From positions 32,907 through 96,906 of the forward strand of contig CAZDWN010000004.1 of NCBI GenBank assembly GCA_964509365.1: DNA of 64,000 bases, given 5' to 3'. The notes below the pieces were generated by a model that saw only the letters and a list, made by a program, of their open reading frames with translations, made no database searches and had not been told where the DNA came from. Positions 4,411 through 52,830 of the stretch are shown piece after piece. How positions within the stretch are numbered: the stretch's first letter is position 1; each line of letters opens with the position of its first letter. The DNA comes from an uncultured Pseudomonadales bacterium. GTDB lineage: Bacteria > Patescibacteriota > Microgenomatia > UBA1400 > UBA12028. The translations under genes and the position numbers were made by a program.

Positions 4411-4497
4411 TGAGTTCCATTTCATCACACTACTTGCATCATGTGGAAAACTGTGATTAAACTTGCTTGCAGTTCACTCTATTTTCTCGCATTTTGT

Positions 4498-5931: not shown

Positions 5932-5994
5932 CTTACGCACTAAGTTATTGACAGTGTGTAAAACAATAGTTGAGGAGAATACACAGATTTCAGG

Positions 5995-6195
5995 GAATTG
6001 TGGATAACTAGGGGGGGATAAGGTGTGAGTCATTCTACACAAACTCGCGTACTGACAGCTGACTGCGAAAAAGATATCCACTCTTTACACACGATTTAAT
6101 CTCGGTTATACATGGATCACCCACATGCTACACACACAAAATAAGCCAGAAGGTAGATCAAGAGTCGCGTTTAGCTCTCCACATATCCACAGACC
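5995..6195. promoter_or_regulatory. DnaA-box cluster between dnaA and dnaN (putative oriC part 2). Perfect box at 5999-6007 (reverse), one-mismatch box ATATCCACA at 6183-6191, a G7 homopolymer at 6011-6017, and an AT-rich stretch at 6220-6240 adjacent to the dnaN start.
   Basis: Direct consensus matches. The bipartite arrangement resembles Bacillus-type origins. Confidence 0.55.
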
Positions 6196-6240
6196 TACTA
6201 CTACTGCTACTAGTCTGTACTTAATAAAAATACACTACCT

Positions 6241-7344
6241 ATGATCATCACAGTACTTCAAGAAAACTTACTCCCTAAATTGCAAGACGCTAGTAAGTTT
6301 GTAGCATCCAAACCTCAATTGCCGATTCTTTCAGGAGTCTATCTCTCTTGTGAAGACAAGAATCTCATTATTCGATCTACTGATCTCAAAGTTGGTTTCC
6401 AGACTACCATAGGCGGAAAGATCGAAAAGGAAGGCACATGCGTCGTACCCATTCGATATTTTGTAGAACTAATTGCTTCACTGCATGCAGGGCCATTGAC
6501 ACTATCTATGCAAAAAGACTCCTTAGTAATTTCTCAAGGGAAAGTTCAGTCAACCCTGAGCACGTTTCCAATACTGGATTTTCCACCATTCCCCATTTTG
6601 GAAGAGAAAGACGGACAACTCACTTCAAAGATTTTTGCAAACGCGGTCGATCATGTTTTTTATGCAGCCTCCCTAGATGAAACTCGACCAGTCATCGCCT
6701 CTATTCTCCTTCATTTTGAAGACGATCATTGTACGTTTGCAGCAACCGATGGGTATAGATTGGCGGTTGAAGAAATAGAATCCAAAATTGTAGAGAAAAA
6801 CCAAAAAGTCTTGGTTCAAGCTAAAATGCTCGCCGAAATATCCAGAATTGTCGGCAAATATCCAGAAAAAGAAGTTTTTATTCGAATCTCAGAAGAGCTG
6901 GCAACGGTACAGTTTTCGATTGACGATACCGTGATGATGGTGAGAACCACAGAAGGGACGTTCCCAAACTTCCAAGCCATTATTCCTCCACAGTTTTCCA
7001 TTTCGACACTCATTGACAGAGATTCACTCGTCCATGCTCTCAAGACTGCGCTCGTAGTGGCAAAAGAAAGTTCTTCGATCATTACTATGGAAATAACGAA
7101 GAAAACAGTGAGAGTTTCAGGTATGAGTCAAAGCGTGGGGGAAAATAGTACAGAACTTGAATCCTCATATGCTGGAGACGAAACACGCACACTTTCATGT
7201 AATGCAAAATTCCTGATGGATTGTCTGACGAGGATTGAGTCGAGCTCAGTTGAGTTGTCTATGAATGAAGAGCTGAAGCCTATTCGATTACGGCCTGAAG
7301 GAAGCGAAAAGTTCACCTATATCGTTATGCCCTTCAAGAAGTAG
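6241..7344 (+). CDS. dnaN: DNA polymerase III beta subunit (sliding clamp)
   Basis: 367 aa with a three-domain clamp-like sequence. Immediately downstream of dnaA. Confidence 0.9.
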   Translation: MIITVLQENLLPKLQDASKFVASKPQLPILSGVYLSCEDKNLIIRSTDLKVGFQTTIGGKIEKEGTCVVPIRYFVELIASLHAGPLTLSMQKDSLVISQGKVQSTLSTFPILDFPPFPILEEKDGQLTSKIFANAVDHVFYAASLDETRPVIASILLHFEDDHCTFAATDGYRLAVEEIESKIVEKNQKVLVQAKMLAEISRIVGKYPEKEVFIRISEELATVQFSIDDTVMMVRTTEGTFPNFQAIIPPQFSISTLIDRDSLVHALKTALVVAKESSSIITMEITKKTVRVSGMSQSVGENSTELESSYAGDETRTLSCNAKFLMDCLTRIESSSVELSMNEELKPIRLRPEGSEKFTYIVMPFKK

Positions 7345-23037: not shown

Positions 23038-24966
23038 CTACTGAGTTGGTAATGTTGGCGGGGTCAACCCTGCAACTTCGTTTGCTTTGGCTTCGCGTGC
23101 GATCGCTTCTTTTTCCTGTGGCTGCACCAGTTGTGACGCTTGGCGCTTGCGCTCGAGCTCCATTGGGTTCGTGGTGATCAAATCGTGTTCTTTTTCACTC
23201 GCGATTACACGGATAGCCACGTGGTTTTGACCAGCAAAGAACAGGCCTTCTCCCACGTCCGCAGCCATGAGGAGACGTCGCTCACCTTCAGACAGGAAAA
23301 AGACATCAGTTAGTACAGGAATCGACGCCGATGACTGCTTCATGAGCAGCTGGATCGAAGAGTTCGTCACGACGGCTTTCCCGTAATCAGTATGCAAGAA
23401 ATCCTCGACGTCTTGAGTGATCATGGTGATACCAAGATAATACTTGCGGGCACGCTTCACCAGCGAGTGAAGGAATGAGGCGCTGTCTTTGTGCTTCATG
23501 AAGTACCACGCCTCGTCGATGATGAGCAATCGTCGTCTCACATCTTTCTTCACACGAGTCCAAATAAAGTCCAAGATCATAAACATGGCGATTGGACGCA
23601 GTTCATCTTCGAGTTCTTTGACCGAAAAGACCGTGAAGTGATTGGTGATATCAAAGTTGGACTTTTGGTCAAAGATGCCACGGAAACTTCCTTTGACGAA
23701 TTTCTCAAGCCTTGCAGCGAGGTTATTGGATTCGGTCGTCTCCATACCCACCAATGCCTTGTATAAATCCTCAAGCAATGGAGGTTCATTGCTCTGAGTG
23801 GCAGGGTCTGGAGTAATACCTTTGGCTTTGTATGCGGCGACAATGGCTCGATCGAGAGTTGCGTCTTCCGTCGGGGAGAGCTCACCCATCATGACTCGCA
23901 AGAGGGAATGCAGTGAGATGATCTTCATTCCAAGTTCGTTTTGGCCTTCTTCATAGACATTTGAGAGGTCAAATGGGTTGATCTTTACTTTGCTATCAAA
24001 TCCAAATGAGACATACTCGCCATCGACTGCCTTGGCCAAGTCTTCATACTCATGCTCAGGATCGAGGATGATCACATCAGTATCAAACATGAGGTGACGA
24101 TAGGCTTCGAGCTTTATCGTATACGACTTTCCAGCACCTGATTTGGCAAAGACGACCATGTTTGCATTCTCCATAGAGAACCGGTCAAAAATGACCAATG
24201 AATCATTGTGCTCATTGATTCCATAGACGATCCCTTGCTCCATCGTCAGTTCAGATGAAGTAAATGGAAACGTTGTAGCAAGTGAAGTCGTGTCCATGTT
24301 ACGGACGTAGGAAAGTTTGTCGACGCCTGTGGGAAGAGTGGTTTTAAATCCTTCTTCCATTTGCAACGTCGCATTCTTACTGATGATCAAAAGTGAGCCG
24401 AGTGTGGACTGGATCTGTTTGGTGACGCGATCGAGCTCTTCAAGAGTCTCACCATGGATGGTAATGTAGAGACCAAACTGGAAGAATCTCTCAGCTCCTT
24501 TGGCCAACTGCTCCTGGATCAAGCGTGCATCCTCAAGTTTGATCTCAGTATCAATATTTCCAATTTTGCCTTGCTTGAGATCGGATGAGAGCTCCGCTTC
24601 CATTTCAGTGATCTTTCGTCGTAAATCCTGAAGGATCTTTGCGCTATCGACAGGGAAGATGTACATCGAGATATCCATCTGGTGGGGGAATGTGATCAGT
24701 GGTGAGAGCCAGTTTGCCGGAACGGAACGAGGGTATCCAGAGATAAACAGCGTGCGAGTGTAATTGCCATTAATGCGTTGGTACGTAAAATCAACCTCGA
24801 TGGCTTCTGGAGCAATGATATCAAGAATGCTGACGAGGCCCGAGGAAAATTTTGTGATCTCTTCATCGAGCTTTTGACGAGTTACTTCTTCAGGAGTCAG
24901 TGGAGTACCGGCAGCCGGTGCGGCGGCTTTATTTTTGTTGAGCATTGTAAAAAGATTGAGAGCCAT
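23038..24966 (-). CDS. virB4: T4SS ATPase VirB4/TrbE/TraE family (conjugal-transfer-type)
   Basis: Walker A FAKSGAGKSY. Walker B LLIIDEAWYF. 642 aa, the size of Gram-positive VirB4 homologues. Confidence 0.9.
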   Translation of the reverse strand: MALNLFTMLNKNKAAAPAAGTPLTPEEVTRQKLDEEITKFSSGLVSILDIIAPEAIEVDFTYQRINGNYTRTLFISGYPRSVPANWLSPLITFPHQMDISMYIFPVDSAKILQDLRRKITEMEAELSSDLKQGKIGNIDTEIKLEDARLIQEQLAKGAERFFQFGLYITIHGETLEELDRVTKQIQSTLGSLLIISKNATLQMEEGFKTTLPTGVDKLSYVRNMDTTSLATTFPFTSSELTMEQGIVYGINEHNDSLVIFDRFSMENANMVVFAKSGAGKSYTIKLEAYRHLMFDTDVIILDPEHEYEDLAKAVDGEYVSFGFDSKVKINPFDLSNVYEEGQNELGMKIISLHSLLRVMMGELSPTEDATLDRAIVAAYKAKGITPDPATQSNEPPLLEDLYKALVGMETTESNNLAARLEKFVKGSFRGIFDQKSNFDITNHFTVFSVKELEDELRPIAMFMILDFIWTRVKKDVRRRLLIIDEAWYFMKHKDSASFLHSLVKRARKYYLGITMITQDVEDFLHTDYGKAVVTNSSIQLLMKQSSASIPVLTDVFFLSEGERRLLMAADVGEGLFFAGQNHVAIRVIASEKEHDLITTNPMELERKRQASQLVQPQEKEAIAREAKANEVAGLTPPTLPTQ

Positions 24967-27608: not shown

Positions 27609-30600
27609 CTAGTAACGTTGTGGAGCACAAGTAGATCCATCGGTAGGCCCACTCGGTTTTCCGTTGTCTTCAGGGAACATATGCACTTGCTCCCAAGCAA
27701 AGTGACTTGGATACGCACTGGCCATATTCATGCATTGACCGCCTAATCCGGGATAAGCTCGATTCATGTACGTCATATACACCGCGATCGATTCGGGAAA
27801 ATCCTCGACTACAGTTCCAGCTCCACCAAATGTATACGTTCGAAGATATCCCTCACTAAATGGACCACGGGTGAAATCTTGTACAAGGCTAGCATGGTTA
27901 TCTTCAATGACGTGTCCTGTCTCGTGAATGAGTGTAAAACGAATGTTGAGTATTGAGCTCGTAGCTGAGAACGTATTATCGAAAAGCGCAACAGTATTAT
28001 TCCCGAGGTATTGACCATACCATCTTGAGTCGGGCCCCACACTGCGACGAGTTAGTGTAACTGATCCGTGATCACATAAAATGTTTCGGTATGTGGGATA
28101 AGCTGCTGTGATGGCAAAGGCTTGGGTTAATTTTTGTTTCTCAATTTCAGACCATGATCCGTCTAGAACTAAGCAAGCGAGGTCATCTGGTGGATTTCCA
28201 AAGGAGACAGTAGCGCTTGTTGAAAATGTTTCACCTTGGGCTTGAGTTGCTCCAGATGAATTTTTGACATCAAATGTGACTGTAAGTACGTTTGATACTC
28301 GTGTGTCAGCGAAACTTGGATCGTACTTTATGGTGTATTCTTGAGTTGCAGTGGACTTAAACACGTCAAGTGGAGGAATCGTCGGAGCGACCGGGTGACC
28401 CTTTGAAGATATACTCACTGTATCAGTGGCATTGGTTATCGTGATCTGGTACGGTTGACCTTTTTCATCAACTTTCGGAGTGAGCTTTAAAGTGTATTTG
28501 ATAGATTTACTTGGAGTGAGGACGCTATTATCAGGATAGGAAGACTCACTCGGCTCCATGATTTTTGTGAGTTCGACATATCTTGAAGAGCCGATATCTT
28601 GTCCATCATTCGGAGTAATAAAAGAACCCGTCATTGCTGATGTGGCAATGAGAGCAGTTGCAGTCACGGTTGTAATGGTCCCGATGATCGTAGTAGCCAC
28701 AGGGAAAGATGCTGTGGTTCCTGGGAGAGCTCCAAGAAATGCATTTGTCCCACCTAATACATTTAGTCCGACTTTGCTCGCAGCAGCTTGCGTACCACTG
28801 AAGATATTCGCACCACTTTTTGCGGCAGCTGAGACCGTCTCAGGTCCGAGCTTGCTCATTGCAGTAAGTCCCTCTTTACCGAGGGTTGCAGTCGATCGAA
28901 TTCCTTCTAACGCTTTCGCTCCGTCTCCAATCCCATAGACGTTGGTCCCGATCATGTGAGCGACACTGGATCCACCAACTGGAATCAAAGATCCGATCGT
29001 CGTAACTCCGGCTCCAATAAATCCTCCTACCACAGTACCGACACCAGGGAAGATGTACGTTCCGATCAAAGCGCCTCCTGCAAATCCACCTGCGGCGCTC
29101 GTGAGTGCTCCGGCTCCAGTGGCTGCGCCTTGTGTAAATGCGTAGACAAGGCCGGCTCCAGTGGCGGCTCCTCCAGCTATGCCAGCTAGAGCCAGAGGAT
29201 TGGAGAGAATGCTCCGGGCGAGTTGGGCAGTCCGCTGCAGTCGACCGGAATTACTATTGATCTGGTTTACGCGGCTGTACGCCTCTCGTTGAGTCTGTGC
29301 TCGATCGGAGTCGTCTAACTGCGGTAGCTCTTGCGCATCGCCGCTACCAGCGAGTTCTATGGCTCCCAAAAGTTCGGCGATATTCTGATCTGCATTGAGC
29401 GGAACATTTTGTTCACCGAAGAGACTGAAAAATTGTCGCTTTTGCTGGCGCTGCTCTGCGTCACGACCAAGCGCAATATTTTCATAAAATTGCTCTTGCA
29501 GCGCGACTATGGTCGCCGCTTCTATGTATTGAGCTTGGAGCAACTCATCTTGCTTCCGTTGTTCCGCAAGTATTTCGACCGCTTCTTCTCGCACTTCACT
29601 AATTGTTTTGCGCTTTTTAATTTCTTGGGCGATTCCATCTCTTTCTTTGCGAGTTTGCTCAAGGGGAGTGGTCAACAGCTTATGATACGTCTCATCCTTT
29701 GGTACAGATGTCTTCAGCTCTGCCATTTGCTCGATGAGTTGTGCTTTGGCTTTTCTGATCTCGCTAGAAAGTTTGCTATTTCCAAAGTCATTGAGATCTT
29801 CAAAAACAGGAATTTTACCTGATTTTTTGAGCAAACTCTTCCGGGCTCGTAGTCGTAAAGCTTCGAAATAGGTGGGGAATGTGATCGCGAATTGAGGATT
29901 TGCGAGCGCCACCTCTTTGGTCAATTGAGCCAGCAATTGAGGAGGCACAGACTCAAAATATGCCGTAACGGTGGCGTACGTCTCGATGTATTCAAGTCGC
30001 CTAGGGTCAGACTCAAAGAACTTCTCTAATGTGGCTGGAGTACTGGAAGTAGCAACGGATTCTTGATTTTGTGATGACGCACGAGTCTTCGCGACTGCTT
30101 GGGAGGCGATATACAGTTCACTGAGTAGAGCTTCTGGAAGTCTCCTGACTGATCGAGAAAGTATTTTATCGATCTCTGCGGGGGTGAGAGATGTCCCTCG
30201 TTTCTCCGTCTCTTCTTCAATCAAATTCTTTGCGACGAGAAACTCGACATCCTCATTGGTGATTGTCCGTTCATCCGCCCCATTGCGCCTGCGCAGCGAG
30301 TTTATGATCGCTGCGCGCATGTCATATGCTTGCTTCAACTGCGCTTTTACGGCTTCATACTCTTTCTTGTCCATCGACTCAAGGTCAAGTTTATTCAAGC
30401 TACGAAATAACGTTTCAAAATCTGGGACAGGTGCGTTGATATCCATGCCATACATGAGAAGCAATCCATCATTGATGGCTTCGGCACGGGCCTTGTTGAT
30501 CTTTTCTCGACGTTCTTCATATGACCCAAACCCAGAAGTGTCTCCGTCTTTGTGTTCACTTGAACTGGTACGGCTTCCAGAGGGAAGAAAAGGCAAGGTT

Positions 30601-42322: not shown

Positions 42323-45300
42323 TTAATACGTCGGTGCATAGAGTTCAATCGCGCATTCGCCATAGGTGAGGTTTACACCTGAAGCATTTGTACAGTTTGC
42401 ACTCGCATTCAAGATCTCACAGCTCCCATAATATGCGCCGGCTGCATTCATCCATTTCTTTTCTTCAGCGCTCGCATTCGGGTAGTTTGGAGAACAATTT
42501 GGATGAGCTTGCGCAGCGTAGTTGAATTTGAGCATTTGCGCACCGACTTTCAGAGACGCCAGCAAGTCACAAGGTGTTGATCCGGCGACTCCCGCCTGTG
42601 GCGAGTATGTACCCCAGTTGTCGTACGGTGCGCCGCACGCTTTTACCAAAACTTGCATTGCGCCGACAGCTCCGACACTGTTGGCTGTGCAGGCTACAGT
42701 AGTTTGATTATTTCTGTATGCTCGTAACGTGCTTCCACCTTCTATTTGGAGGACTCCCCAAAGATAATTGGCGGGGATACCGACACTTTGCGCTGCTTGC
42801 GCGACCAATGCTTTTAGAGGTCCCCAATCTCCGTCAGCGTGAGCTGGTAAGATTGTCGTCCCACTACAGAGAGAAGCGACAGGTGCACCAGGTGAAGAAG
42901 GCGTCCCGACTGCTCCTTGGGTACAAGCGGCAAGACCTTGCTGCAAGAATTTCTCAAATCCCGGATATTGGATCGTGGCTTTGCCGTTGTACGGTCGTGT
43001 CACATTGCAGACGACTTCCCATAGTGCTCGAGCGATTTTCCCTCCCGGGACTTGCGGATCGACGGTGACAGTTTTCTCAAGATTGAGTTGCCCTGAGAGC
43101 TTGCCATCGACAGTCTTTGTCCCTTGAGTGACTGTCCCATCAGGAAGAACGACTGGCGGGGCATTTGGATCTGGGATCGTGTAGCTCAGATCAGCTCCAT
43201 CAAATTTGGGATTGATGATGGATGTCGAGGAGCCAGTGATCTGTAGATATTTATAAGCTGCTTTTGGATTTGCAGCTCGCTCTGACTCGTACGTGATGAA
43301 ATTAAACTCTGGATGCTTGGTAATGTCTTGATAATCATAGGGAAGGAACGTCTGAAGGAACGGAGTCTCGTAGTCTGTAATGTTGCGATACTCTTCAGGC
43401 AACAATAAAAAGGTCTTAATGGTCCGATTGTCACTTCCGGGCTTGGTGGCGACCAAAGTCGCAGTCACTGGAATCTTTGCCAACTTCACAGGATCAAGCG
43501 TCCCCGCTGGGTTGATGGTGTGCACTCGTTCGGTCGCAGTCTCGCCGACCAAATCATCATGCGTACAAGCGTCTTGTCCACTCGTCGCGAACTCCGCATT
43601 GATGCGACGAACGATGGTAACTCTGGGAAGATACTCAGGGTTACTTTCCAAGATAGAGCAGCTCTCACATTTGATGCCGAGACCACTAGTTGCATTTGGC
43701 ATCGCTTTGATGAGTTTGTCGATCACAAGCGCACGTGTCTTGGCTATTTGAGTCTGGACGCTCATCGGCATGATGGAAGTGATCGTCTGCATGAATCCAC
43801 CAGTATAGGTGGGGAAGAACGTCGGCTGCTTTTCTTTTGGTTCCAGATCAGGATTGTTGTTCACTGCGTTGATATTGACCTCCGCAAATCCAGCAGGGAC
43901 ATAGACTTTGACGACTTTGATGCGATCAGTAAGGTTACGAGGATCACCGATGCCGCCATTTGCATCTTCTCCGGGAGCCAACCATACGACTCGTTTGTCG
44001 AGGTTGGTTTGCGGCGTCTCTGGTCGATCTACATAGTGGACTAAATATGCAGGTTTGAATCCTTTTGGTGTCGTCAACTCAACTTTTGAAAACGATCGAT
44101 ACCACGCCATCTCATTTTGAGTAAGCGTATCGACATTTCTGCAGCTAAAACTTTGCGGCATCTGCTCGAGGACTTTCTTATAAGTGTCGTACCTGGCATC
44201 GGCACCTGGAATTTGAGAGTAGAGTGCGCACTCTCCAGGGATCGGGGTAGGCTTTGGCGTTGCAGGGATATTTGCTGCAGCTTTCAATGCGTCGGCGTCG
44301 AGCTTGTCGTTGTAGGTGTATCCACTTCGATTGTTTTCGGTATCACACAGTTGCTTGATCGTCTGTAGATACGTAATCGTTGCTTGACACTGCTCTTGTG
44401 TCCCGATGACTTTTCTAGACACACCGTTTGCAAGCGGAGTAATCAGTGAGGAGCTCAGCGTATTTGCAGCTCCGACCAACTCTTCTTTGGTGTAGTTGGC
44501 ACTAAAAAATCCCTCAAGGTCGTCTAACCGTCTTTTTGGTTGATCGGGATTGGGGACTTGAGCGCCTTGAAAGCGAAACAGAGGAATGACGGCTTTGGTA
44601 CTATCGATGATGACATTGGCCCACACTCCAGGAATAGTGCATCTCCCATCAGGAGGATTTCCCGAGCAGTCAATCTCATACCCGGGTGGTCGATTGTTAA
44701 GTGCACTCTCATTTGAAATATCACCTTTTATTTTGAATTGATTACCACAAGTCAGCGTGTAGCCGGCCGCCATTTGACGCATTTTGTCGACATCTGGAGC
44801 CATATCTTCGATACCAGGGTAGACAAAGACCTGTCGTTTTCCTCCTCCACATTTCTCGGGTTTTTCGACTGCGAGATCGCCTTGGTGCCAATACTCACAG
44901 ATGGCAGGGACGGTATGATACCAATCGCTGTTGCCAGGGTCTGGGCTCGTTGGATTTCGCAAAAAACCCACCTTGGCGACGGCAGGCTGATCATTATTTT
45001 GAACGTAAAAGTCTTGGACACAATCAAAGTCCTTACAAGTCGTGATCCCGAACTCGGTGATATAGAGTTGGGCAGTGGATAAATTGCGTCCAGCGAGGCT
45101 ATTTATTTTACTTAAGACCCACTGACCACTGTTGACTGTGCATCGGGTCGCTTCATACGCGCCACATCCGCCGGTTTGATAAACGTTTGCAAATACGGCG
45201 CTAATCGCTGCTTTGTTTATTCCGGATGAAAAAATTTGATTGAGTGTTGTCGCGGCGTCATAATCGTCATTGATCGTATCCATGGTCGAGATGCCAAGTG

Positions 45301-45793
45301 GGCCTTTGCCATTCCAAGCAGAAGCAAATGTGTTAAAAAGCTGGGCATACTTTGTATAGTCACAATTCTTCCATTCACCATTGACTGGGTTTTGGTTATT
45401 TATTTCGTTACCGATGGTCACCGGTGTGCCGGCGGGGATTGCTCCAGCGAGCGTCGTCATGTCTTGTGTACTTGTATTGCAGTCAATATTGATACGAGCG
45501 ATCGCCAAGTATCCGCTTGAGAGGAGACTGACACCGGATCCATTCGGATAGACCATCACCACGACGGGGTAGGTGGGGCTTTTTAATCCTGAAGAAGTTA
45601 ACTTGTCTAAGACCTTTTTTTGAGCACCCTCATCACCTTGAATGAGGTGAGTACCGACTTTATCGACTTGAGTAGTTCCTTGGGCCCTGGTCGCAGTTGA
45701 GTCAAATAAAAACAGCCCTACGGCGAGGAGCAAAATGGGGAAGAAAAAGGCAAACGCACGGCAGAGTCGTCGCATGAATATAGTATACAACAC
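42323..45793 (-). CDS. Giant (1156 aa) secreted cell-wall hydrolase. N-terminal clan GH-A glycosidase-like domain plus C-terminal lysozyme-like/lytic transglycosylase (VirB1-like) domain.
   Basis: Signal peptide. IGNEIN (acid/base NE) and LYITEFG (nucleophile TE) about 110 aa apart. C-terminal LQIEGG...GAVGAMQV resembling SLT motifs (ES...GLMQ). Confidence 0.65.
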   Translation of the reverse strand: MLYTIFMRRLCRAFAFFFPILLLAVGLFLFDSTATRAQGTTQVDKVGTHLIQGDEGAQKKVLDKLTSSGLKSPTYPVVVMVYPNGSGVSLLSSGYLAIARINIDCNTSTQDMTTLAGAIPAGTPVTIGNEINNQNPVNGEWKNCDYTKYAQLFNTFASAWNGKGPLGISTMDTINDDYDAATTLNQIFSSGINKAAISAVFANVYQTGGCGAYEATRCTVNSGQWVLSKINSLAGRNLSTAQLYITEFGITTCKDFDCVQDFYVQNNDQPAVAKVGFLRNPTSPDPGNSDWYHTVPAICEYWHQGDLAVEKPEKCGGGKRQVFVYPGIEDMAPDVDKMRQMAAGYTLTCGNQFKIKGDISNESALNNRPPGYEIDCSGNPPDGRCTIPGVWANVIIDSTKAVIPLFRFQGAQVPNPDQPKRRLDDLEGFFSANYTKEELVGAANTLSSSLITPLANGVSRKVIGTQEQCQATITYLQTIKQLCDTENNRSGYTYNDKLDADALKAAANIPATPKPTPIPGECALYSQIPGADARYDTYKKVLEQMPQSFSCRNVDTLTQNEMAWYRSFSKVELTTPKGFKPAYLVHYVDRPETPQTNLDKRVVWLAPGEDANGGIGDPRNLTDRIKVVKVYVPAGFAEVNINAVNNNPDLEPKEKQPTFFPTYTGGFMQTITSIMPMSVQTQIAKTRALVIDKLIKAMPNATSGLGIKCESCSILESNPEYLPRVTIVRRINAEFATSGQDACTHDDLVGETATERVHTINPAGTLDPVKLAKIPVTATLVATKPGSDNRTIKTFLLLPEEYRNITDYETPFLQTFLPYDYQDITKHPEFNFITYESERAANPKAAYKYLQITGSSTSIINPKFDGADLSYTIPDPNAPPVVLPDGTVTQGTKTVDGKLSGQLNLEKTVTVDPQVPGGKIARALWEVVCNVTRPYNGKATIQYPGFEKFLQQGLAACTQGAVGTPSSPGAPVASLCSGTTILPAHADGDWGPLKALVAQAAQSVGIPANYLWGVLQIEGGSTLRAYRNNQTTVACTANSVGAVGAMQVLVKACGAPYDNWGTYSPQAGVAGSTPCDLLASLKVGAQMLKFNYAAQAHPNCSPNYPNASAEEKKWMNAAGAYYGSCEILNASANCTNASGVNLTYGECAIELYAPTY

Positions 45794-45799
45794 CTCACC

Positions 45800-46213
45800 T
45801 TAGAGGGAGATCTTAAACTGAGTAAGCGCGGTGATGCCAGTGAAATCGGAGATGAATCGCAAGATGACATAGGAAGCCAAGGCGACCACAATTCCAATGA
45901 TCGCATACGTAATCGCGTTTTTCCCAGCGTCGATCCCTTTGCTATTGGATCCTGCAGTCATGTATTGAAAAGAACCCATGAGGAACATAATAAATGCCGC
46001 TATCCCGATGATCGTGATAAAGACAGCAAGCACGTTTGACACCAGACAGCCAATGCCCTGAATCGTGGCGACATCTGCTGCCGCCGTGGATGTACCGACA
46101 CACGCACCGGTCCACGCAGTTGTCTGTGCTTGAGCTCTCGGTACAATCGAAAGCACAAAAGCAATCAGTGACGAGAAGTAGGCGGTTTGGAATATTTTTC
46201 GATTTGTCATCAT
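45800..46213 (-). CDS. T4SS pilin-like protein (TrbC/VirB2-type, PF18895-like), paralog 1
   Basis: Signal peptide (MMTNRKIFQTAYFSSLIAFVLSIVPRAQA), then two hydrophobic helices flanking a short polar loop (YMTAGSNSKGIDAGKNAI). Confidence 0.7.
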   Translation of the reverse strand: MMTNRKIFQTAYFSSLIAFVLSIVPRAQAQTTAWTGACVGTSTAAADVATIQGIGCLVSNVLAVFITIIGIAAFIMFLMGSFQYMTAGSNSKGIDAGKNAITYAIIGIVVALASYVILRFISDFTGITALTQFKISL

Positions 46214-46250
46214 AGCAAGATTATAGCATTCCCGAGGTCGACTGCGTATC

Positions 46251-46278
46251 AAAAAAGCCCCCGGGGATACCGGGGGCC
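46251..46278 (-). terminator. Rho-independent terminator downstream of pilin paralog 2
   Basis: 8-bp GC stem (GCCCCCGG/CCGGGGGC) followed by a T6 run on the minus strand. Confidence 0.65.
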
Positions 46279-46300
46279 TTCTCATCACACCAATCAACAA

Positions 46301-46690
46301 TTAATATGCTGATGGGAGAGTGATGTTTGTTCCAATTGAAATTCCGAAGAAGTTCTGCAGCACAACTGAGATTGCCAATGCTGACGCAACAATCGCCAAA
46401 CCAATGATTGCATTGGTGATCTTTTGTCGAGCACTTTCAGTCTTACTCTTGTCTCCGCCAGCGGTCAGCCACTCAATACCACCCCAGATGAGGTAGATGA
46501 ACACCAACAAGCCGACGATACCGAGAGTGAACTTCAACAGCGAACTGATCAGTTTCCCGATGTCGTTGATCTTAAAGCCAGCTCCTGCGGCGTCGACGTT
46601 GATTGGAGTATCAACAGCGAATGCTGTTGAGGCTGCAAGTGCGAGAGTCGTGACACCTGTCGAAATCCCAGTGATTAATTTTTTGACCAT
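46301..46690 (-). CDS. T4SS pilin-like protein, paralog 2
   Basis: Signal peptide, then helix-WLTAGGDKSK-loop-helix (IYLIWGGIEWLTAGGDKSKTESARQKITNAIIGLAIV). Confidence 0.75.
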   Translation of the reverse strand: MVKKLITGISTGVTTLALAASTAFAVDTPINVDAAGAGFKINDIGKLISSLLKFTLGIVGLLVFIYLIWGGIEWLTAGGDKSKTESARQKITNAIIGLAIVASALAISVVLQNFFGISIGTNITLPSAY

Positions 46691-46776
46691 AGCATTCTCC
46701 TTTATAGAATATCGATATGCTACTAATGATATTCTATCATACTAGGGGAGGTAAAGGGGGGAATCAAGGGTGGATT

Positions 46777-47451
46777 TTACTGACAGCCTCGGATGTCCAC
46801 ACCAGGAAGTAGTGTCGTCCCGCCCAAACAGCCACATGGCTCAAGATGCGGATAGTTGAGGCCTCCCGCTCCAGCTGGCATACAGCGGACCGAGGCAGCT
46901 CCACTGTTTGAACAATAGCCGCCGGCACCGTTGTCACTGACAGTACTTCCAATAGCAATATTCCCGGCACACGTGTTCGCGACTGGCGTCGTCCCTGTAG
47001 TAGTGTTGCTTCCTCCTGGGGCAGGTTGCGTGGTGGTCGTCCCACCTCCTCCATTGCCTCCGCCGATGGTGACTTTGGTCGAAAGACCAAGGAAATTTAT
47101 GAGTATCGTATAGAACACGAATACGCATGCAAGGATGGCTAAGCCAATAATCGATTGCGTGATGCGACTGCGTCCTGCTTCGATCTTTGCTTTATCGCCC
47201 CCAGAGAGCAACCACTCTGCGCCGCCCCAAATAAGATAGACGAACAGAATAAAGCCACTGATGCCTGCGACCCACTTTGAGACGGAGCCAAGGAGTATTC
47301 CAAGATTTGAGACGAGATACCCAGACGTCGCCGGGGCAACGGTCACGGAATCATCATAGCCAGGAGGAAGTCCTTGCGCAGTGATCACACTTGGCAGAAA
47401 AATAGCACTGCCAATCAGAATTGCCAAAATAAGTGTGAACTTTTTTATCAT
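46777..47451 (-). CDS. T4SS pilin-like protein, paralog 3, with Gly/Thr- and Cys-rich C-terminal extension
   Basis: Pilin core VYLIWGGAEWLLSGGDKAKIEAGRSRITQSIIGLAIL plus about 100 aa G/T/C-rich tail. Confidence 0.72.
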   Translation of the reverse strand: MIKKFTLILAILIGSAIFLPSVITAQGLPPGYDDSVTVAPATSGYLVSNLGILLGSVSKWVAGISGFILFVYLIWGGAEWLLSGGDKAKIEAGRSRITQSIIGLAILACVFVFYTILINFLGLSTKVTIGGGNGGGGTTTTQPAPGGSNTTTGTTPVANTCAGNIAIGSTVSDNGAGGYCSNSGAASVRCMPAGAGGLNYPHLEPCGCLGGTTLLPGVDIRGCQ

Positions 47452-47456
47452 AGAGA

Positions 47457-47819
47457 CTAGGCTCTGTACTCATGCGTTGGAATACTTCCCATTCCGTAGT
47501 TGCCGATGTTAAATCGTGTGCGCAGACCAAGGAAATTGAGAACAAGCCCAAAGATCAAGAAGACGGATGCCAATATGACGAGTCCGATCACGCCCTGCGT
47601 CATCATACCTCGTGCTTCTTCGATCTTTCCTTTCTCTCCTCCAGCAGTAATCCAGCTAAATGCACCGTAGAGTAAGAAGTAGAGGACGGCGATCGTCCCA
47701 ACCGTGAGAATGGCGCTTGCGCCAATTTGTAACAATTGATCTAGAGTGCCAATAGGAGATATCAGCGCAGTTGATCCGCCAATGTTGAGTGGTTGAGTCT
47801 GGGCAAGCAGTATAAACAT
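47457..47819 (-). CDS. T4SS pilin-like protein, paralog 4
   Basis: Core LYGAFSWITAGGEKGKIEEARGMMTQGVIGLVIL. Confidence 0.72.
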   Translation of the reverse strand: MFILLAQTQPLNIGGSTALISPIGTLDQLLQIGASAILTVGTIAVLYFLLYGAFSWITAGGEKGKIEEARGMMTQGVIGLVILASVFLIFGLVLNFLGLRTRFNIGNYGMGSIPTHEYRA

Positions 47820-47830
47820 AAAACTACTTT

Positions 47831-48169
47831 CTATACATTATTCGCAAATTGTAGATTCAATAGATCGATTCCTAATACTTTGCCTACGAAGACGCTGATC
47901 GCAACGGTGCCCGCTAGGACGAGCATACCGATGACACTTTGAGTCATGCGATCTCTGGCTGCCTGTACTTTGCCTTTTTCACCACCCGCAGTGATCCATT
48001 CAAGTGCCCCAATGATCAACATAATAAGGAGTGCTAAGCCACCGAGAGTGATTGCCGTTCGCCAGAGCGTAATGATGATACTGGCCAGAGCCGTGCTCGG
48101 AGCGGCGGCAGCAGAACCAAAAACAGGAGCGACGGCCGGGTTGGTAATCTGTGCAATAAGTGTAAACAT
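47831..48169 (-). CDS. T4SS pilin-like protein, paralog 5
   Basis: Core IIGALEWITAGGEKGKVQAARDRMTQSVIGMLVL. Confidence 0.72.
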   Translation of the reverse strand: MFTLIAQITNPAVAPVFGSAAAAPSTALASIIITLWRTAITLGGLALLIMLIIGALEWITAGGEKGKVQAARDRMTQSVIGMLVLAGTVAISVFVGKVLGIDLLNLQFANNV

Positions 48170-48173
48170 ACAT

Positions 48174-48548
48174 TTACCTCGGTAAAATTGTTCCTATCAT
48201 TTTCACTGGGTCAAGTAAATCTATGCCAAGTACTCTGCCAACGACACCGGCAATACTATAAGCAGCGATCACTACGACAAGTCCAAGTGCGGCTTGAGTC
48301 ATCTGGTTGCGAGCCGCTTCGACTTTGCCTTTGTCCCCACCAGCTGTAATCCAGGACAGACCAGCAAAGATCAAGTAAATCAAAAACATGATACCGGCGA
48401 GACCAGTGACGAATCCAATGATATTACTGATGAAAAGGGCAATTGGCGTGCCCACACCAACTGCACCTGCGCCAGGAGAAAAAACCGCGGTAGGTGGATC
48501 TAGTTGACCAAGTTGAAGTGTGCCTGCGGCTGCAAGTAGTTGTGACAT
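48174..48548 (-). CDS. T4SS pilin-like protein, paralog 6
   Basis: Core IFAGLSWITAGGDKGKVEAARNQMTQAALGLVVV. Confidence 0.72.
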   Translation of the reverse strand: MSQLLAAAGTLQLGQLDPPTAVFSPGAGAVGVGTPIALFISNIIGFVTGLAGIMFLIYLIFAGLSWITAGGDKGKVEAARNQMTQAALGLVVVIAAYSIAGVVGRVLGIDLLDPVKMIGTILPR

Positions 48549-48551
48549 ACA

Positions 48552-48908
48552 TTATGGCAATGCCGTCGGGATTGTCGGCCTAAGAATAAACATAGAATCA
48601 CCAAACAAAAGCAAACTCACGAGCGCTGTTATTAAGAATGCACCCGCGATAATCACGAGACCAATCAAACTGTACGTCATCTGATTCATGGCCTGTTCAG
48701 TGGCTTTCGCATTCCCGCCTGAACTTAAATACGTGTAACCGGCCGAGATAATATTGAATAGTCCAAAAAGACCGGCGACTACGGTAACGAGTTTAATGAT
48801 ATTTGAGATAAAGACCAATAGTCCCGCCGGACCGGGTGTGAACTTATCTACTCCTGGCGGGGTAGTCACTGAGCCAAATATTTGAAAAACCATGAAGCTA
48901 AGCATCAT
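48552..48908 (-). CDS. T4SS pilin-like protein, paralog 7
   Basis: Core ISAGYTYLSSGGNAKATEQAMNQMTYSLIGLVII. Confidence 0.68.
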   Translation of the reverse strand: MMLSFMVFQIFGSVTTPPGVDKFTPGPAGLLVFISNIIKLVTVVAGLFGLFNIISAGYTYLSSGGNAKATEQAMNQMTYSLIGLVIIAGAFLITALVSLLLFGDSMFILRPTIPTALP

Positions 48909-48920
48909 ATGTATTTTGTA

Positions 48921-49274
48921 TTATAGCGTCGCATTCAATATTGGTACACCGGTGAATGCCTGAACGATCTGAATAATCCAATACGCAGCAAAAATAATGA
49001 TAAAACCGATGATCGCTCCCATGATCTGATTCTTGCCAGATTCCACGCTCTTGGCATTGCCTCCGGAGGCAACGATCGAAAAGCCGCCACCGATTATCAG
49101 GAAAAGCAGTACCAACCCGGAAATGACAAAGATGATGGGGATCAAGAGATTGAGAAACGATGCGACAGAAGGATATGAGCTGGCAATTGTGCCACCTTTT
49201 TCATTGATTTTGAGCATGGTCCCCAGGCTCTGTGCCGGTGCTCCATTTCCACTGCCTAAAGCAAGTAAACTCAT
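48921..49274 (-). CDS. T4SS pilin-like protein, paralog 8
   Basis: Core IIGGGFSIVASGGNAKSVESGKNQIMGAIIGFIII. Start at MSLLALGS (49274), avoiding overlap with the divergent sigma gene. Confidence 0.65.
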   Translation of the reverse strand: MSLLALGSGNGAPAQSLGTMLKINEKGGTIASSYPSVASFLNLLIPIIFVISGLVLLFLIIGGGFSIVASGGNAKSVESGKNQIMGAIIGFIIIFAAYWIIQIVQAFTGVPILNATL

Positions 49275-49290
49275 ACCAGTAGTATACAAT

Positions 49291-49854
49291 ATGTTCATGC
49301 AGTTTAGAAATGAGCAAGACCTCATCGTAAAGCTCAAGGCGGGCGAAAGTTCGAGCGTCAACATCTGGTATGCGACCTCAAAAGACGAGTTACTTGCATT
49401 TTTCCTCAAGAGAATGAGTAGTGAAGCTGATGCGCAGGAGCTCGTCCATGATACGTATCTGTCTTGTCTTTCTTCGCTTCCACTTTTTCGTGGTGATTCC
49501 GGATTATGGACATTTATGGTGTCGATTGCTCGTCACGAGCTCGCTGACTACTGGCGCAAACGATACGCCAAGAAAGCTATTGCGCTTTTACCGTTTGGGC
49601 AAGAACTTCTTGATTCCGTCGAGGGTGATGCTGATGAGCACTCCTGGGTACTCGATCACGGGCGGGAAATATCCCATATCCTGCATCAATTACCTGAGGA
49701 AATCTCAGAATTGCTGCAACTCAAATATGTCGACGGCTTGTCTGTAAAAGAGCTTGCGACTCACTACGGGTTGAGTTTTGCGGCGATGCAAAGTAAATTG
49801 CATCGAGCCAAAGCGGTATTTAAAGAACAGTATGAACGAACCACAATTTCTTGA
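49291..49854 (+). CDS. ECF-type RNA polymerase sigma factor (sigma-70 regions 2 and 4)
   Basis: Region 2 ELVHDTYLSCL...ARHELADYWRKRY. Region 4 LLQLKYVDGLSVKELATHYGLSFAAMQSKLHRAK. Start at Met 49291, not the tool's 49033. Confidence 0.8.
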   Translation: MFMQFRNEQDLIVKLKAGESSSVNIWYATSKDELLAFFLKRMSSEADAQELVHDTYLSCLSSLPLFRGDSGLWTFMVSIARHELADYWRKRYAKKAIALLPFGQELLDSVEGDADEHSWVLDHGREISHILHQLPEEISELLQLKYVDGLSVKELATHYGLSFAAMQSKLHRAKAVFKEQYERTTIS

Positions 49855-50044
49855 GGAACTACAACACAAGGCAAAAGTACAGGCAGCGATAGAACACAGT
49901 TCGCCACTTCCACAGTGGTCGAGGCCCTTTGTATCGATCGTAGGTCTTCACTATTGGCAGTTTTTGCTAGGCGTCTCATTTGTCGTCGCGATGATCATTT
50001 GTATTTGGTTCTTCCCAGGAGTCTATGCCCACAATTCTCTCTAA
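49832..50044 (+). CDS. Putative anti-sigma factor (small single-TM protein)
   Basis: 71 aa. Overlaps the sigma gene's 3' end by 23 nt. Cytoplasmic N-terminus then one TM (FVSIVGLHYWQFLLGVSFVVAMIICIWFF). Confidence 0.42.
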   Translation: MNEPQFLEELQHKAKVQAAIEHSSPLPQWSRPFVSIVGLHYWQFLLGVSFVVAMIICIWFFPGVYAHNSL

Positions 50045-50339
50045 AAGCACTGGCTTAGGATATGGAGTGATGGCTACGATCCTCGGGGTACTTACGCATC
50101 CATACCAAACCATGCAAAAAGTGGTTTCAAAAGATATCCCAATTGGATTTGTCTTTTTCCCAGCGGTTTTTTGCCTCATCGGTTGGCTTTTCGCTCATGA
50201 GTTATCGTCTCTACTGCTCGCCATTCTTCCTCTGATCGGATTTTGGTGGTTCCTCGAGTGTTGGTGGCTGTCTTTTTGGGGTCTTTGGCAAGTCACCCTC
50301 ATCTATCTCTTCTGGCGCTTTTCTTCGAGTTTGCATTGA
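50025..50339 (+). CDS. Hypothetical small membrane protein (3 TM)
   Basis: Hydrophobic ORF directly after the anti-sigma candidate. Confidence 0.35.
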   Translation: MPTILSKSTGLGYGVMATILGVLTHPYQTMQKVVSKDIPIGFVFFPAVFCLIGWLFAHELSSLLLAILPLIGFWWFLECWWLSFWGLWQVTLIYLFWRFSSSLH

Positions 50340-50606
50340 ATGAATCTTCAGTGAATGATTTTCAGCAAAAATTGCGACTATTGTCTTGTCTATGCAAATT
50401 TCACGCCATTGGCGACTGAACGCTGTGCGCTACCGTCTCCAAGGTGTCCGCTATGAAAATGGTGAGACTAGTCTACAAAATAGGCCCGGTGGTCCATCTG
50501 AGGCGGAAGTTGAGTGGGCAGTGACTGTTGCCCGAAATTTATCAAAATTGAATGATTTCAGAGATTTGAACCCTGAGGGCGCTCGTAATGGAAAAGAAAG
50601 TGCGGC

Positions 50607-51146
50607 ATGAATCTCGATCAAGTCATATTAGTCGACGAACTTGATCATGAAATTGGTGTGATGGATAAGCTTGAGGCACACAGGGGAGCAGGAAAATTAC
50701 ATCGAGCCAGTAGTGTGTTTTTATTCAACGCCGGAGGAAAGCTGTTGATCCAGCAGCGAAGCAGCAAAAAGATAGTCGGTGCGGGTCAATGGGCGAATAC
50801 GTGTTGCGGTAATGTACGGCCAGGTGAATCGTATCTTGAATGTGCACAACGTCGATTGCATGAAGAGTTAGGAATAAGTATTGGTAGAGACGAGTCTCTG
50901 ACTCGTCTCCAAGAAATCACCAAGTTCATGTATCAGACGCAATGTAACGACGAGTTTAGTGAGTATGAGATGGATACCGTTTTTGTCGGCAAATACGATG
51001 GAGAAGTCTATCCAAATCCAGATGAAGTTGCAGAGGTTAAGTGGATCGATTTAAAAGATTTATTACGACAGATTCCGCTTGCTCCTTGGGTACAAATTAT
51101 GGGAAATAAAAGTATTCTAGTAAAAATTCAGGAGAAAATATGTTGA
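50607..51146 (+). CDS. idi: Isopentenyl-diphosphate delta-isomerase, type 1 (Nudix)
   Basis: VILVDELDHEIG, HRASSVFLFN, WANTCCGN and Nudix box RRLHEELGI. Confidence 0.8.
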   Translation: MNLDQVILVDELDHEIGVMDKLEAHRGAGKLHRASSVFLFNAGGKLLIQQRSSKKIVGAGQWANTCCGNVRPGESYLECAQRRLHEELGISIGRDESLTRLQEITKFMYQTQCNDEFSEYEMDTVFVGKYDGEVYPNPDEVAEVKWIDLKDLLRQIPLAPWVQIMGNKSILVKIQEKIC

Positions 51147-51337
51147 ACGAAAGAATAGTCACTAGAGTTGACGGAACAGATATTGTTACAGTCGAACCCA
51201 TCTCAGCGGAGATGGCAATAATTGTCGCAAATTCACAACTGTATGCAATGGCTTTGAACGGTGAAGTTCCTGAAATTGAAGGTATGGATATTGAAGAAAT
51301 GAGGAAATCGGTTAAGAGTATCGAAGCAATGGACTGA
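51140..51337 (+). CDS. Hypothetical small protein (65 aa)
   Basis: Fills the gap exactly between idi and the kinase gene. Confidence 0.35.
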   Translation: MLNERIVTRVDGTDIVTVEPISAEMAIIVANSQLYAMALNGEVPEIEGMDIEEMRKSVKSIEAMD

Positions 51338-51338
51338 T

Positions 51339-52142
51339 ATGAAATCACTCACACTTCTCAAACTCGGTGGTGCGGTCATCACCAACAAAGAAATTCCAGA
51401 ATCGGTCAGAGAAGATGTCCTTTCTCGGCTCGTTGATGAGATTGCAAAAGCATGGGCGAAGAGACCAGGCACATTTATCTTGGGCAATGGCGCAGGTAGC
51501 TTTGCGCATGTCCCTGCGAGTCGCTATAAGACAATCAATGGCTTTATCCATGAGGAGAGCGCTATTGGCATGGCGATCACACAAGATGCAGCAGCAAGAC
51601 TCAATCGCATGGTCGTCAGGTCACTCATTGAAGCTGGAGTGCCTGCCGTCTCTGTCGCTCCTTCAAGCATCATTCTCGCTGATCAGACACATCCGAAAAC
51701 CTGGTATGGAGACGTCCTCATCAATCATCTCAAGCGAGGGCTCTTACCGGTGGTCTTCGGGGATGTGATCGCAGATGCTTCGCAAGGTTGCACGATCTGG
51801 TCTACCGACACCGTTTTTTCTTTCTTGAGTAGAGAGTTGCCGGCACTTGGATACAATGTGCGAGACATCATCCATGTGACTGAGGCCGGAGGAGTCTGGA
51901 AGGATTCTCAGACAAAAGAAATTTTCCCGATGATTACACTCTCTATGAGAGAAGAAGTGCGAGGTTCAATGACGGACGTCAAAGGGTTTGATGTCACTGG
52001 TGGGATGTGGCATAAGATTCAAGAAGCATTGAGTCTAGCGGAGATGGGGATACAAACACGAATTGTGAGCGGAACCGAGCAAAAAGTCGTATACAATACA
52101 CTTCTTGGTGATGTCTCTTTTGGTACTGTCATTACAAAGTAA
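51339..52142 (+). CDS. Isopentenyl phosphate kinase (amino-acid-kinase fold)
   Basis: LKLGGAVITNK N-terminus and VTGGM motif. Operon context with idi and uppS. Confidence 0.65.
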   Translation: MKSLTLLKLGGAVITNKEIPESVREDVLSRLVDEIAKAWAKRPGTFILGNGAGSFAHVPASRYKTINGFIHEESAIGMAITQDAAARLNRMVVRSLIEAGVPAVSVAPSSIILADQTHPKTWYGDVLINHLKRGLLPVVFGDVIADASQGCTIWSTDTVFSFLSRELPALGYNVRDIIHVTEAGGVWKDSQTKEIFPMITLSMREEVRGSMTDVKGFDVTGGMWHKIQEALSLAEMGIQTRIVSGTEQKVVYNTLLGDVSFGTVITK

Positions 52143-52152
52143 AGTCTCTCCT

Positions 52153-52830
52153 ATGTCACTTCCACAACACGTCGCGATCATCATGGACGGAAATCGTCGC
52201 TGGGCAAAGCAAAATAAAATGAAAGCCCTGCAAGGGCACTCCTATGTGGTGGATCACTGTATCGAACCATTGGTTGATCGCTGTATCGCACTCGGCATCC
52301 CATATCTGACTCTCTGGGCATTCAGCTCGGAAAACTGGCATCGCGACAAAGAAGAAGTCGCTGGCCTGATGCAGATCTTTCGCAGAGCGTTTTCAAAGAA
52401 AGTGGAAGACTTGCACAAAAAAGGAGTCAAATTGGGAATTATTGGCGATATTGATGCATTTCCAAAAGATATCGCTGACAACGCGAAAGAGTGGGTAGCT
52501 ATCAGCCAAAAGAATACGAAAATAACGGTAAATTTTGCACTAAACTATGGAGGAAGATCAGAGATACTACGCGCCGTTGCCAAACTATCAATGAATAACG
52601 AACAAGTAACAACGGAGAATTTTGAAAAGCATTTATACACGGCAGGAATGCCAGATCCAGATTTATTGATTCGCCCAGGAGGAGAGAAGCGAATGTCTGG
52701 TTTTATGCCTTGGCAAACGGTGTATACAGAGCTGTACTTCACTGACACACTCATGCCGGACTTTGGTCCGGAAGAGCTTGATCTTGCGATAGAAGAATAC
52801 CAGTCTCGACAACGACGATTTGGAAAATGA
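52153..52830 (+). CDS. uppS: Undecaprenyl diphosphate synthase (cis-prenyltransferase)
   Basis: HVAIIMDGNRRWA, WAFSSENWHR, IRPGGEKRMSGFMPWQ. Confidence 0.9.
   Translation: MSLPQHVAIIMDGNRRWAKQNKMKALQGHSYVVDHCIEPLVDRCIALGIPYLTLWAFSSENWHRDKEEVAGLMQIFRRAFSKKVEDLHKKGVKLGIIGDIDAFPKDIADNAKEWVAISQKNTKITVNFALNYGGRSEILRAVAKLSMNNEQVTTENFEKHLYTAGMPDPDLLIRPGGEKRMSGFMPWQTVYTELYFTDTLMPDFGPEELDLAIEEYQSRQRRFGK

Follow-up and report, generated by a model that had tools for sequence, protein, structure and literature searches.

In Bacillus subtilis, the sigM-yhdL-yhdK operon couples a sigma factor of the extracytoplasmic function (ECF) type to a two-protein membrane anti-sigma complex that responds to undecaprenyl phosphate; the SigM response comprises more flux through peptidoglycan synthesis, carrier recycling and carrier liberation (PMC11081497). 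ECF promoters of this species show a CGAC -10 element, a T-tract near the -35 element, close adherence to the consensus and fixed spacing; those of the SigX/SigW type are composed of a TGnAAC -35, a T-tract proximal to it and CGAC, CGTA or CGTC as -10 (PMC5758882). The present analysis concerns a locus of related layout in a stretch of 64,000 nucleotides (nt) from an uncultured bacterium of the Patescibacteriota, GTDB lineage Microgenomatia (contig CAZDWN010000004.1, positions 32,907 to 96,906; the whole stretch is termed the window): three overlapping genes for an ECF sigma factor and two small membrane proteins, located divergently to an array of VirB2-like pilin genes. An earlier note on this DNA had proposed that the sigma factor controls the pilin and other type IV secretion system (T4SS) genes. 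Members of the Candidate Phyla Radiation (CPR)/Patescibacteria are nearly all uncultured and, to our knowledge, almost nothing is known on their transcriptional regulation. Comparative evidence defines a predicted isoprenoid/lipid-carrier regulon under an ECF-class promoter in Microgenomates, and a minimal sigma/anti-sigma/membrane-sensor module probably drives isoprenoid lipid-carrier synthesis at this locus, not the pilins.

The locus resembles the SigM system in three respects: the operon order of ECF sigma factor, single-pass and then small multi-pass membrane protein (PMC11081497), the tie to the lipid carrier (the predicted target operon ends in UppS, with mevalonate, IDI and isopentenyl-phosphate kinase (IPK) genes), and an ECF promoter of the CGxC class. 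The likeness is one of layout and theme only; the small proteins have no detectable homology beyond a narrow CPR clade. In contrast to YhdL, which is several-fold larger, the anti-sigma candidate comprises just 70 amino acids (aa) with one cytoplasmic helix. Unlike the SigM response, the predicted regulon consists of carrier synthesis (the isoprenoid pathway); furthermore, no promoter for autoregulation was detected upstream of the sigma gene, and a carrier signal would be assumed here by analogy. The features of the locus are:

49297..49854, plus strand: ECF sigma factor gene, 185 aa (Pfam, NCBIfam and PDB profile matches, homologue alignment)
49832..50044, plus strand: 70-aa single-pass membrane protein, candidate minimal anti-sigma factor (hydropathy, AlphaFold2, conservation)
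50025..50339, plus strand: 104-aa multi-pass membrane protein with three transmembrane (TM) helices, candidate co-anti-sigma factor/membrane sensor (AlphaFold2, conservation)
50352..50380, plus strand: ECF-class promoter from the de novo motif search (-35 TGAATG at 50352-50357, T-tract at 50359-50362, -10 CGACTA at 50375-50380)
50392..52830, plus strand: predicted target operon (Pfam; relatives have these gene families behind the motif), with the five members below
50392-50610 (alternative TTG start at 50386), plus strand: degenerate DUF35/zf-ChsH2-like protein, 72 aa (Pfam)
50607-51146, plus strand: IDI/NUDIX (Pfam)
51140-51337, plus strand: 65-aa open reading frame (ORF)
51339-52142, plus strand: IPK (Pfam)
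52153-52830, plus strand: UppS (Pfam)

The sigma factor belongs to the ECF branch (group 4) of the sigma-70 family, and its identity is secure: Pfam returned Sigma70_ECF (1e-9, the whole protein), Sigma70_r2 (1.2e-8, residues 31-91) and Sigma70_r4_2 (9.3e-9, residues 125-175), NCBIfam TIGR02937 reached 61.9 bits versus a cut-off of 42.9, and the family profile matched solved ECF sigma factors in the PDB, including SigH, SigE, SigW and CnrH, with E values from 9e-20 to 4e-9. No equivalog or subfamily cut-off of NCBIfam was reached; as such, the protein is a typical member of a known family. ECF sigma factors contain sigma domains 2 and 4 only, at a length of about 170-220 aa; the present protein has 185-187 aa. 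The gene had been recognized as such in the earlier note with its start at 49291. As all 33 aligned homologues open with MQF or MVF, the true start is most likely the ATG at 49297, six bases downstream; the interval of about 17 bp to the divergent pilin start given at that time thus holds roughly for 49291 (16 nt) and becomes 22 nt for the likely start.

Both genes downstream of the sigma gene, as described in the earlier note, were retrieved: the 70-aa gene overlaps the 3' end of the sigma gene by 23 nt, and the 104-aa gene overlaps the 70-aa gene by 20 nt. Because their reading frames overlap, the three genes are probably translationally coupled. The hydropathy profile of the 70-aa protein contains a single hydrophobic span (approximately residues 33-68), and the AlphaFold2 model consists of a helix (residues 3-23), an SPLP loop and the TM helix (helix 28-69). 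In an alignment of 96 unique sequences, the best-conserved residues (F6, L7, L10, Q11, A14, Q17 and L20) form one face of the N-terminal helix, L26-P27 in the loop behind it are conserved too, and the short extracytoplasmic C-terminal tail is unconserved. The model of the 104-aa protein (pLDDT 88.8) comprises helices 3-24, 26-35, 40-67 and 71-103; its sequence is characterized by an invariant HPY within HPY(Q)T(M)Q and a near-invariant WQxxLLYLxxRF.

Neither small protein gave a meaningful family match in Pfam, NCBIfam or the PDB; a weak match to SpaQ (E = 0.07) and matches to eL39 were dismissed. Word-indexed homologue searches returned just five close matches for each, and an exhaustive profile search of 1.84 billion representatives returned 19 relatives of the 104-aa protein. 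Nearly all of these are stand-alone proteins of 82-148 aa, with no informative domain fusions; a 2175-aa match to the same profile was judged spurious, its best stretch covering only about 30 residues. Fold comparison of the 104-aa protein was uninformative, as the matches were generic helical hairpins.

Class I anti-sigma domains (zf-HC2/RskA-type) are N-terminal helical bundles of about 80-90 residues, in many cases with a zinc motif, HxxxCxxC. Outside this class stands the 70-aa protein: it lacks a family match and a Cys/His motif and has one helix before the TM segment. The view of the earlier note, that this ORF has the topology of a cognate anti-sigma factor, is upheld as regards position, topology and the conserved cytoplasmic helix. 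CnrY and NepR use two helices of roughly 30-45 residues. As in these class II-like proteins, occlusion of the sigma factor would fall to a very short helical segment in the cytoplasm and, as in CnrY, this segment is part of a small single-pass protein; in contrast to both, one helix of about 21 residues is predicted here, and no homology was detected. From position, coupling, topology and conservation pattern we infer that the 70-aa protein is the anti-sigma factor of this sigma factor.

The gene order is conserved among relatives. The 37 close relatives of the sigma factor are, without exception, from Patescibacteria; by its homologues, the window belongs to a CPR genome of Microgenomates/Woesebacteria-like affinity. 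On eight contigs with 41-78% sigma identity, the sigma gene was followed in each case by an ORF of 70-78 aa and another of 98-118 aa that align well with the window genes. A species scan with one genome per GTDB species yielded 80 further sigma loci at 35-76% identity, whose neighbouring genes were called with hidden Markov models (HMMs) made from the genes of the window: in 71 of the 74 loci with enough flanking sequence (Microgenomates/CPR), the two small genes were located 3' of the sigma gene. Within the trio, the genes overlap or lie close together. Both small ORFs are therefore real, conserved genes, and the 70-aa gene, through its overlap and this co-occurrence, has the position expected of an anti-sigma gene; a lack of conservation beside the sigma gene, which the earlier note had named as evidence to the contrary, was not observed. 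Two sigma homologues (L022 and L066) have neither the 70-aa/3-TM partners nor a pilin array nearby; they may represent a paralogous branch or a rearranged context.

The promoter was identified by a de novo search, in which all pairs of a 5-mer and a 4-mer separated by 14-19 nt were counted in the intergenic gaps of 86 loci and compared with a shuffled control. TGATT-N14-CGAC was present in 39 loci (shuffled-control maximum: 17) and was the sole non-trivial pair that stood out; there was no second conserved bipartite motif in these gaps. The full consensus reads tTG(C/A)(A/G)TGATTTt-N7-tTTTgCGACTAa, the short form TG(A/C)(A/G)TG-ATTTT-N-CGACTA. The motif has a rigid spacing and a single orientation, always toward the downstream gene; with TG(A/C)(A/G)TG as the -35 element, the spacer amounts to 17 nt. 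The distance from CGACTA to the start codon is about 5-13 nt with a mode of 7 nt; as this mode matches the geometry of the leaderless TATAAT promoters described below, CGACTA is taken as the -10 element. Bipartite structure, rigid spacing, near-consensus sequence, the CGAC -10 and the T run just downstream of the -35 are shared with the SigX/SigW-type promoters, from which the motif differs in the core of its -35 element (TG(A/C)(A/G)TG instead of AAC) and in heading near-leaderless mRNAs.

In the window, the motif starts eleven bases past the stop codon of the 3-TM gene. This copy (50352-50380) is the sole one in the 64 kb; it is the only exact match, matches with two mismatches occur at chance level, and its position weight matrix (PWM) score of 30.5 compares with peaks of at most 13.4 in 19 of 20 window shuffles and 18.7 in the remaining one. 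An Rfam search and a terminator scan of the region 48.5-52.9 kb gave nothing relevant, with neither an Rfam family nor a terminator at the promoter site. A second copy of the -35 half (TTGAATGATTT, 50548-50558) is situated within the 3'-terminal part of the 72-aa gene, some 50 nt ahead of the IDI start; with no CGAC at the right spacing, it is probably non-functional or vestigial.

Across the sigma-anchored loci, the motif was placed directly behind the sigma operon, within 300 nt of the 3-TM gene, in 40 of 81; where it was missing, recF, SUF or a TATAAT-driven UppS gene took this place. Upstream of the sigma gene it was found in 1 of 85 loci, and the sigma gene has a TAnAAT -10 at leaderless distance instead of an autoregulatory ECF promoter. 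Positive autoregulation of this kind is common in the ECF family, if not universal. The motif was absent from all 538 upstream regions of pilin genes (PWM score of at least 14) and from those of the VirB4-like gene and the giant genes of the window. In two loci a copy lay within the sigma operon itself, immediately ahead of the anti-sigma candidate (L086, about +550 from the sigma start) or of the 3-TM gene (L067, about +646); there it may act as a negative-feedback promoter.

An unbiased scan of metagenome contigs by the motif alone yielded 50 loci, 27 of which carry the sigma trio directly upstream. In the pooled set of 86 distinct instances (including these 50), 76 have a recognized isoprenoid gene among the next four ORFs (labels checked with Pfam); most of the other ten are truncated. 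HMG-CoA reductase is the first gene after the motif in 24 cases, and HMG-CoA synthase, thiolase, mevalonate kinase, MVD, IDI, IPK and UppS occur as well. One locus (L080, 4800-8300) shows an inversion, relative to the flanks, that is confined to the trio: the isoprenoid genes lie divergently upstream and have kept the motif, in four copies, whereas the 3-TM gene is now followed by the pilin array in the same orientation. As regards the first gene of the window operon, the 72-aa protein begins with MQISRHWRLN..RYRL.G and has lost its cysteines; its homologues in L050, L064 and L104 possess a CxxC...CxxC pattern and match zf-ChsH2 (the DUF35 zinc ribbon, a partner of archaeal-type HMGS/thiolase).

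On the other side of the sigma gene, the following features are located:

48921..49274, minus strand: pilin paralog 8, first gene of the VirB2-like array (PF18895 T4SS_pilin)
45800-49274, minus strand: array of eight VirB2-like pilin genes (eight tandem genes matched by an HMM built from the window pilins)
49281..49289, both strands: two overlapping, back-to-back -10 hexamers (sequence; recurrence in relatives)

The eight-gene array of divergent PF18895 pilins matches the VirB2-like arrays of 2-11 genes that have been reported from Patescibacteria and are abundant in Microgenomates (bioRxiv 10.1101/2025.01.22.634366). The sigma gene was divergent from an array of 7-8 pilin genes on all eight contigs mentioned above; in the species scan, a divergent pilin gene directly adjoined it in 59 of 69 loci and at least four pilin genes lay upstream in 65 of 69, the adjacency being kept down to 35% sigma identity. 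The co-occurrence with pilin arrays that the earlier note had suggested to look for is thus borne out. In six loci (L017, L018, L032, L061, L071 and L081), 1-2 kb of extra minus-strand genes are inserted between sigma gene and array; those of L017 (4200-6000) resemble pilus assembly proteins of the PilN/PilO type, with an 'INLMP' motif among their features.

Two boxes occupy the divergent spacer itself: TACAAT (plus strand, 49284-49289) precedes the sigma ATG (49297) by 7 nt, and TATACT (minus strand, 49286 to 49281) precedes the pilin ATG (49274) by 6 nt. In about 25 relatives, the start codons are likewise 22-28 nt apart. The first pilin gene is preceded by TATAAT (40 loci) or TATACT (12 loci) at 4-12 nt from its ATG in 52 of 65 loci, and TAnAAT, often with a TG before it, is found at a similar distance upstream of the sigma gene in about 45 of 79. 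The overlap of the two boxes was rejected as a conserved regulatory device, as the distance between the start codons varies within the family, with values of 4 to about 140 nt.

The arrangement 'TAnAAT, 6-8 nt, ATG' heads many unrelated units of the window, among them those of a penicillin-binding protein (PBP) gene, both giant genes, the 640-aa gene, pilin 1 and the gene at 54992. The unit-leading genes with a TAnAAT box, often with GG or TG before it, are found at 7534, 17789 (minus), 31232 (minus), 36637, 42274 (minus), 46213 (minus), 54992 (minus), 57002, 57997 and 59725; in these, the box lies 6-8 nt before the ATG and there is no Shine-Dalgarno sequence, so genes that lead an operon in this genome seem, as a rule, to have leaderless mRNAs. 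Because the same box-to-ATG layout heads so many unrelated units, the spacer boxes are read as ordinary housekeeping promoters that give leaderless mRNAs, not as an ECF promoter; the shared divergent promoter from which the earlier note had deduced co-regulation is replaced by two housekeeping-type hexamers. The internal pilin genes 7 and 1 have TATAAT boxes of their own 7-11 nt before the ATG (regions 48909-48935 and 46214-46240, respectively, minus strand), and the array may therefore consist of several short transcription units rather than one operon.

From what was directly observed (the identities of the genes and their conservation, the promoter motifs and where they lie, and the genes that come after the motif), the following mechanism is proposed for the module, to which we give somewhat better than even chances. 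The trio would be transcribed from its housekeeping leaderless promoter and would not be autoregulated; the 70-aa protein would most likely tether and inhibit the sigma factor via its conserved N-terminal cytoplasmic helix. Since this protein has no conserved extracellular part, the signal presumably sensed by the module would have to be perceived within the membrane or at its surface, probably jointly with the multi-pass protein. Once released, the sigma factor would direct RNA polymerase to the TG(A/C)(A/G)TG-ATTTT-N-CGACTA promoter, which in the window lies right after the trio and would drive the operon of the DUF35-like protein, IDI, IPK and UppS; in relatives, the same promoter sequence also precedes operons with HMG-CoA reductase, synthase, thiolase and mevalonate kinase. 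The system would thereby adjust the supply of polyprenyl lipid carrier, and the pilin array would use its own TATAAT-type leaderless promoter. That this sigma factor, and not the housekeeping one, reads the motif is proposed because the only ECF sigma factor seen in these loci adjoins the promoter in about half of the genomes. A wider version appears doubtful to us, if conceivable: a sigma factor held at the membrane by the one-helix anti-sigma factor and a Trp-rich 3-TM sensor (HPYQTMQ) might read the polyprenyl-carrier pool and switch on the whole pathway from mevalonate to undecaprenyl diphosphate via one near-leaderless ECF promoter, with the pilin adjacency coupling carrier supply to the production of surface appendages, in a minimal system specific to Microgenomates (CPR).

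Several observations weigh against a dedicated sigma/anti-sigma module for carrier synthesis. The link between sigma factor and motif consists of adjacency in about half of the genomes and of the ECF-like architecture, the -35 element of which lacks the canonical AAC. The variants of sigma region 4.2 (AMQSK versus VESxL) and of the -35 element (TGAA versus TGCA/TGCG) split along clades, with exceptions; this clade-level covariation was rejected as independent evidence, though it is compatible with the proposal. The 70-aa protein shows no detectable similarity to any anti-sigma domain in Pfam, NCBIfam or the PDB, and its cytoplasmic part of one helix of about 21 residues is shorter than the known domains; the 3-TM protein has no sequence link beyond its own narrow family, and its fold matches are generic hairpins. 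Furthermore, the very strong pilin adjacency is explained by synteny only.

As a rival explanation, the motif could be an isoprenoid promoter that is read by a different alternative sigma factor, or that needs another regulator, the regulon of the present sigma factor lying elsewhere and its position being a matter of synteny; this we regard as rather improbable. It would agree with the motif tracking the isoprenoid genes and not the trio (it also stands before HMG-CoA reductase operons with no sigma gene in the retrieved DNA, and is missing behind the trio where recF or SUF genes follow), with the missing autoregulatory copy and with the absence of the usual AAC. However, the motif directly follows the trio in 40 of the 81 sigma-anchored and 27 of the 50 motif-found loci, its CGAC -10, T-tract and fixed spacing are of the ECF class, the rare copies before the anti-sigma candidate or the 3-TM gene would fit feedback within the same circuit, and CPR genomes are small with few sigma factors. 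Somewhat less remote, yet still unlikely in our estimate, is that the two small proteins have no anti-sigma function and are co-transcribed merely, e.g. as envelope or lipid factors, with sigma activity set by expression level or another mechanism. Some ECF groups lack anti-sigma factors; neither protein resembles an anti-sigma family by sequence, nor the multi-pass protein by fold, and the 70-aa protein has but a very short segment in the cytoplasm. Against this stand the near-obligate co-occurrence with the sigma gene in fixed order and overlapping frames, conservation that is concentrated on a single face of the cytoplasmic helix and spares all extracellular parts, the tiny, nearly always stand-alone multi-pass family, consistent with a dedicated partner, and the parallel to the layout of SigM-YhdL-YhdK.

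Control of the divergent pilin array and other T4SS genes by the sigma factor, via the shared spacer or ECF promoters and on an envelope signal, as advanced in the earlier note, is considered very unlikely. ECF sigma factors often regulate neighbouring genes; the adjacency to the pilins reaches down to the most distant sigma homologues, persists where the downstream genes differ (L004) and, after the inversion of the trio in L080, leaves the pilins downstream on the same strand. Conversely, the first pilin gene has a TATAAT/TATACT box at leaderless distance in most loci, this box type is the general promoter of the genome, preceding the giant genes, pilin 1 and pilin 7 as well, and the ECF-class motif, confined in the window to 50352-50380, precedes none of the pilin genes in the comparison, the de novo search having revealed no second motif that could take its place. 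The AAC-CGT-like pattern, which had been proposed as a check, is under-represented in the window (GAAC-N15-18-CGT: 15 occurrences versus 29.5 expected), with none near the T4SS genes. No sequence evidence supports direct control of the array, for which the probability is very low, and the adjacency to the pilins is best regarded as synteny conserved in a block close to the origin. The preferred explanation remains a sigma factor that would serve carrier synthesis.

Further features of the window are:

4441-7344: dnaA and dnaN
23038-24966: VirB4-like ATPase gene

The genes dnaA and dnaN are about 17 kb from the VirB4-like ATPase gene; both have been reported to be abundant near virB4 in most CPR phyla, including Microgenomates (bioRxiv 10.1101/2025.01.22.634366). 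The window also encodes two class A PBPs and FtsH. Next to the pilin array, genes of 1156 and 640 aa follow, both without a Pfam match. Three genes of about 1200 aa without a Pfam match are present (27609-31232, minus; 36637-40257, plus; 42323-45793, minus); two of them have their own leaderless TATAAT/TAAAAT promoters, and the third lies behind the pilin array, a position that it also has in relatives. Between the gene of a 5'-3' exonuclease and a giant gene, a 325-aa protein with a lamin tail domain (PF00932) is encoded (35594-36571, minus).

A literature search on CPR ECF sigma factors, on sigma factors with Patescibacteria pilins and on extracytoplasmic function in Microgenomates retrieved no prior description. 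The word 'sigma' does not occur in the text of the study on the pilin arrays, which thus does not describe a sigma module beside them (bioRxiv 10.1101/2025.01.22.634366). The conserved minimal partner pair, the dedicated promoter and the predicted isoprenoid regulon of CPR bacteria appear undescribed in the literature searched.

For the CPR, the analysis offers a concrete predicted regulon, composed of one sigma factor, one promoter motif and one pathway (isoprenoid/lipid-carrier), that is conserved across a class-level lineage. The proposed anti-sigma arrangement would be the smallest suggested so far, and the analysis would extend the idea, recently established for SigM of B. subtilis, of ECF systems that serve lipid-carrier homeostasis. 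Leaderless TATAAT promoters appear to drive the pilin arrays constitutively, a point of importance for the reading of the arrays' role in epibiotic life. Finally, the motif and the leaderless geometry should be useful for correcting gene starts and defining operons in metagenome-assembled genomes of the CPR.

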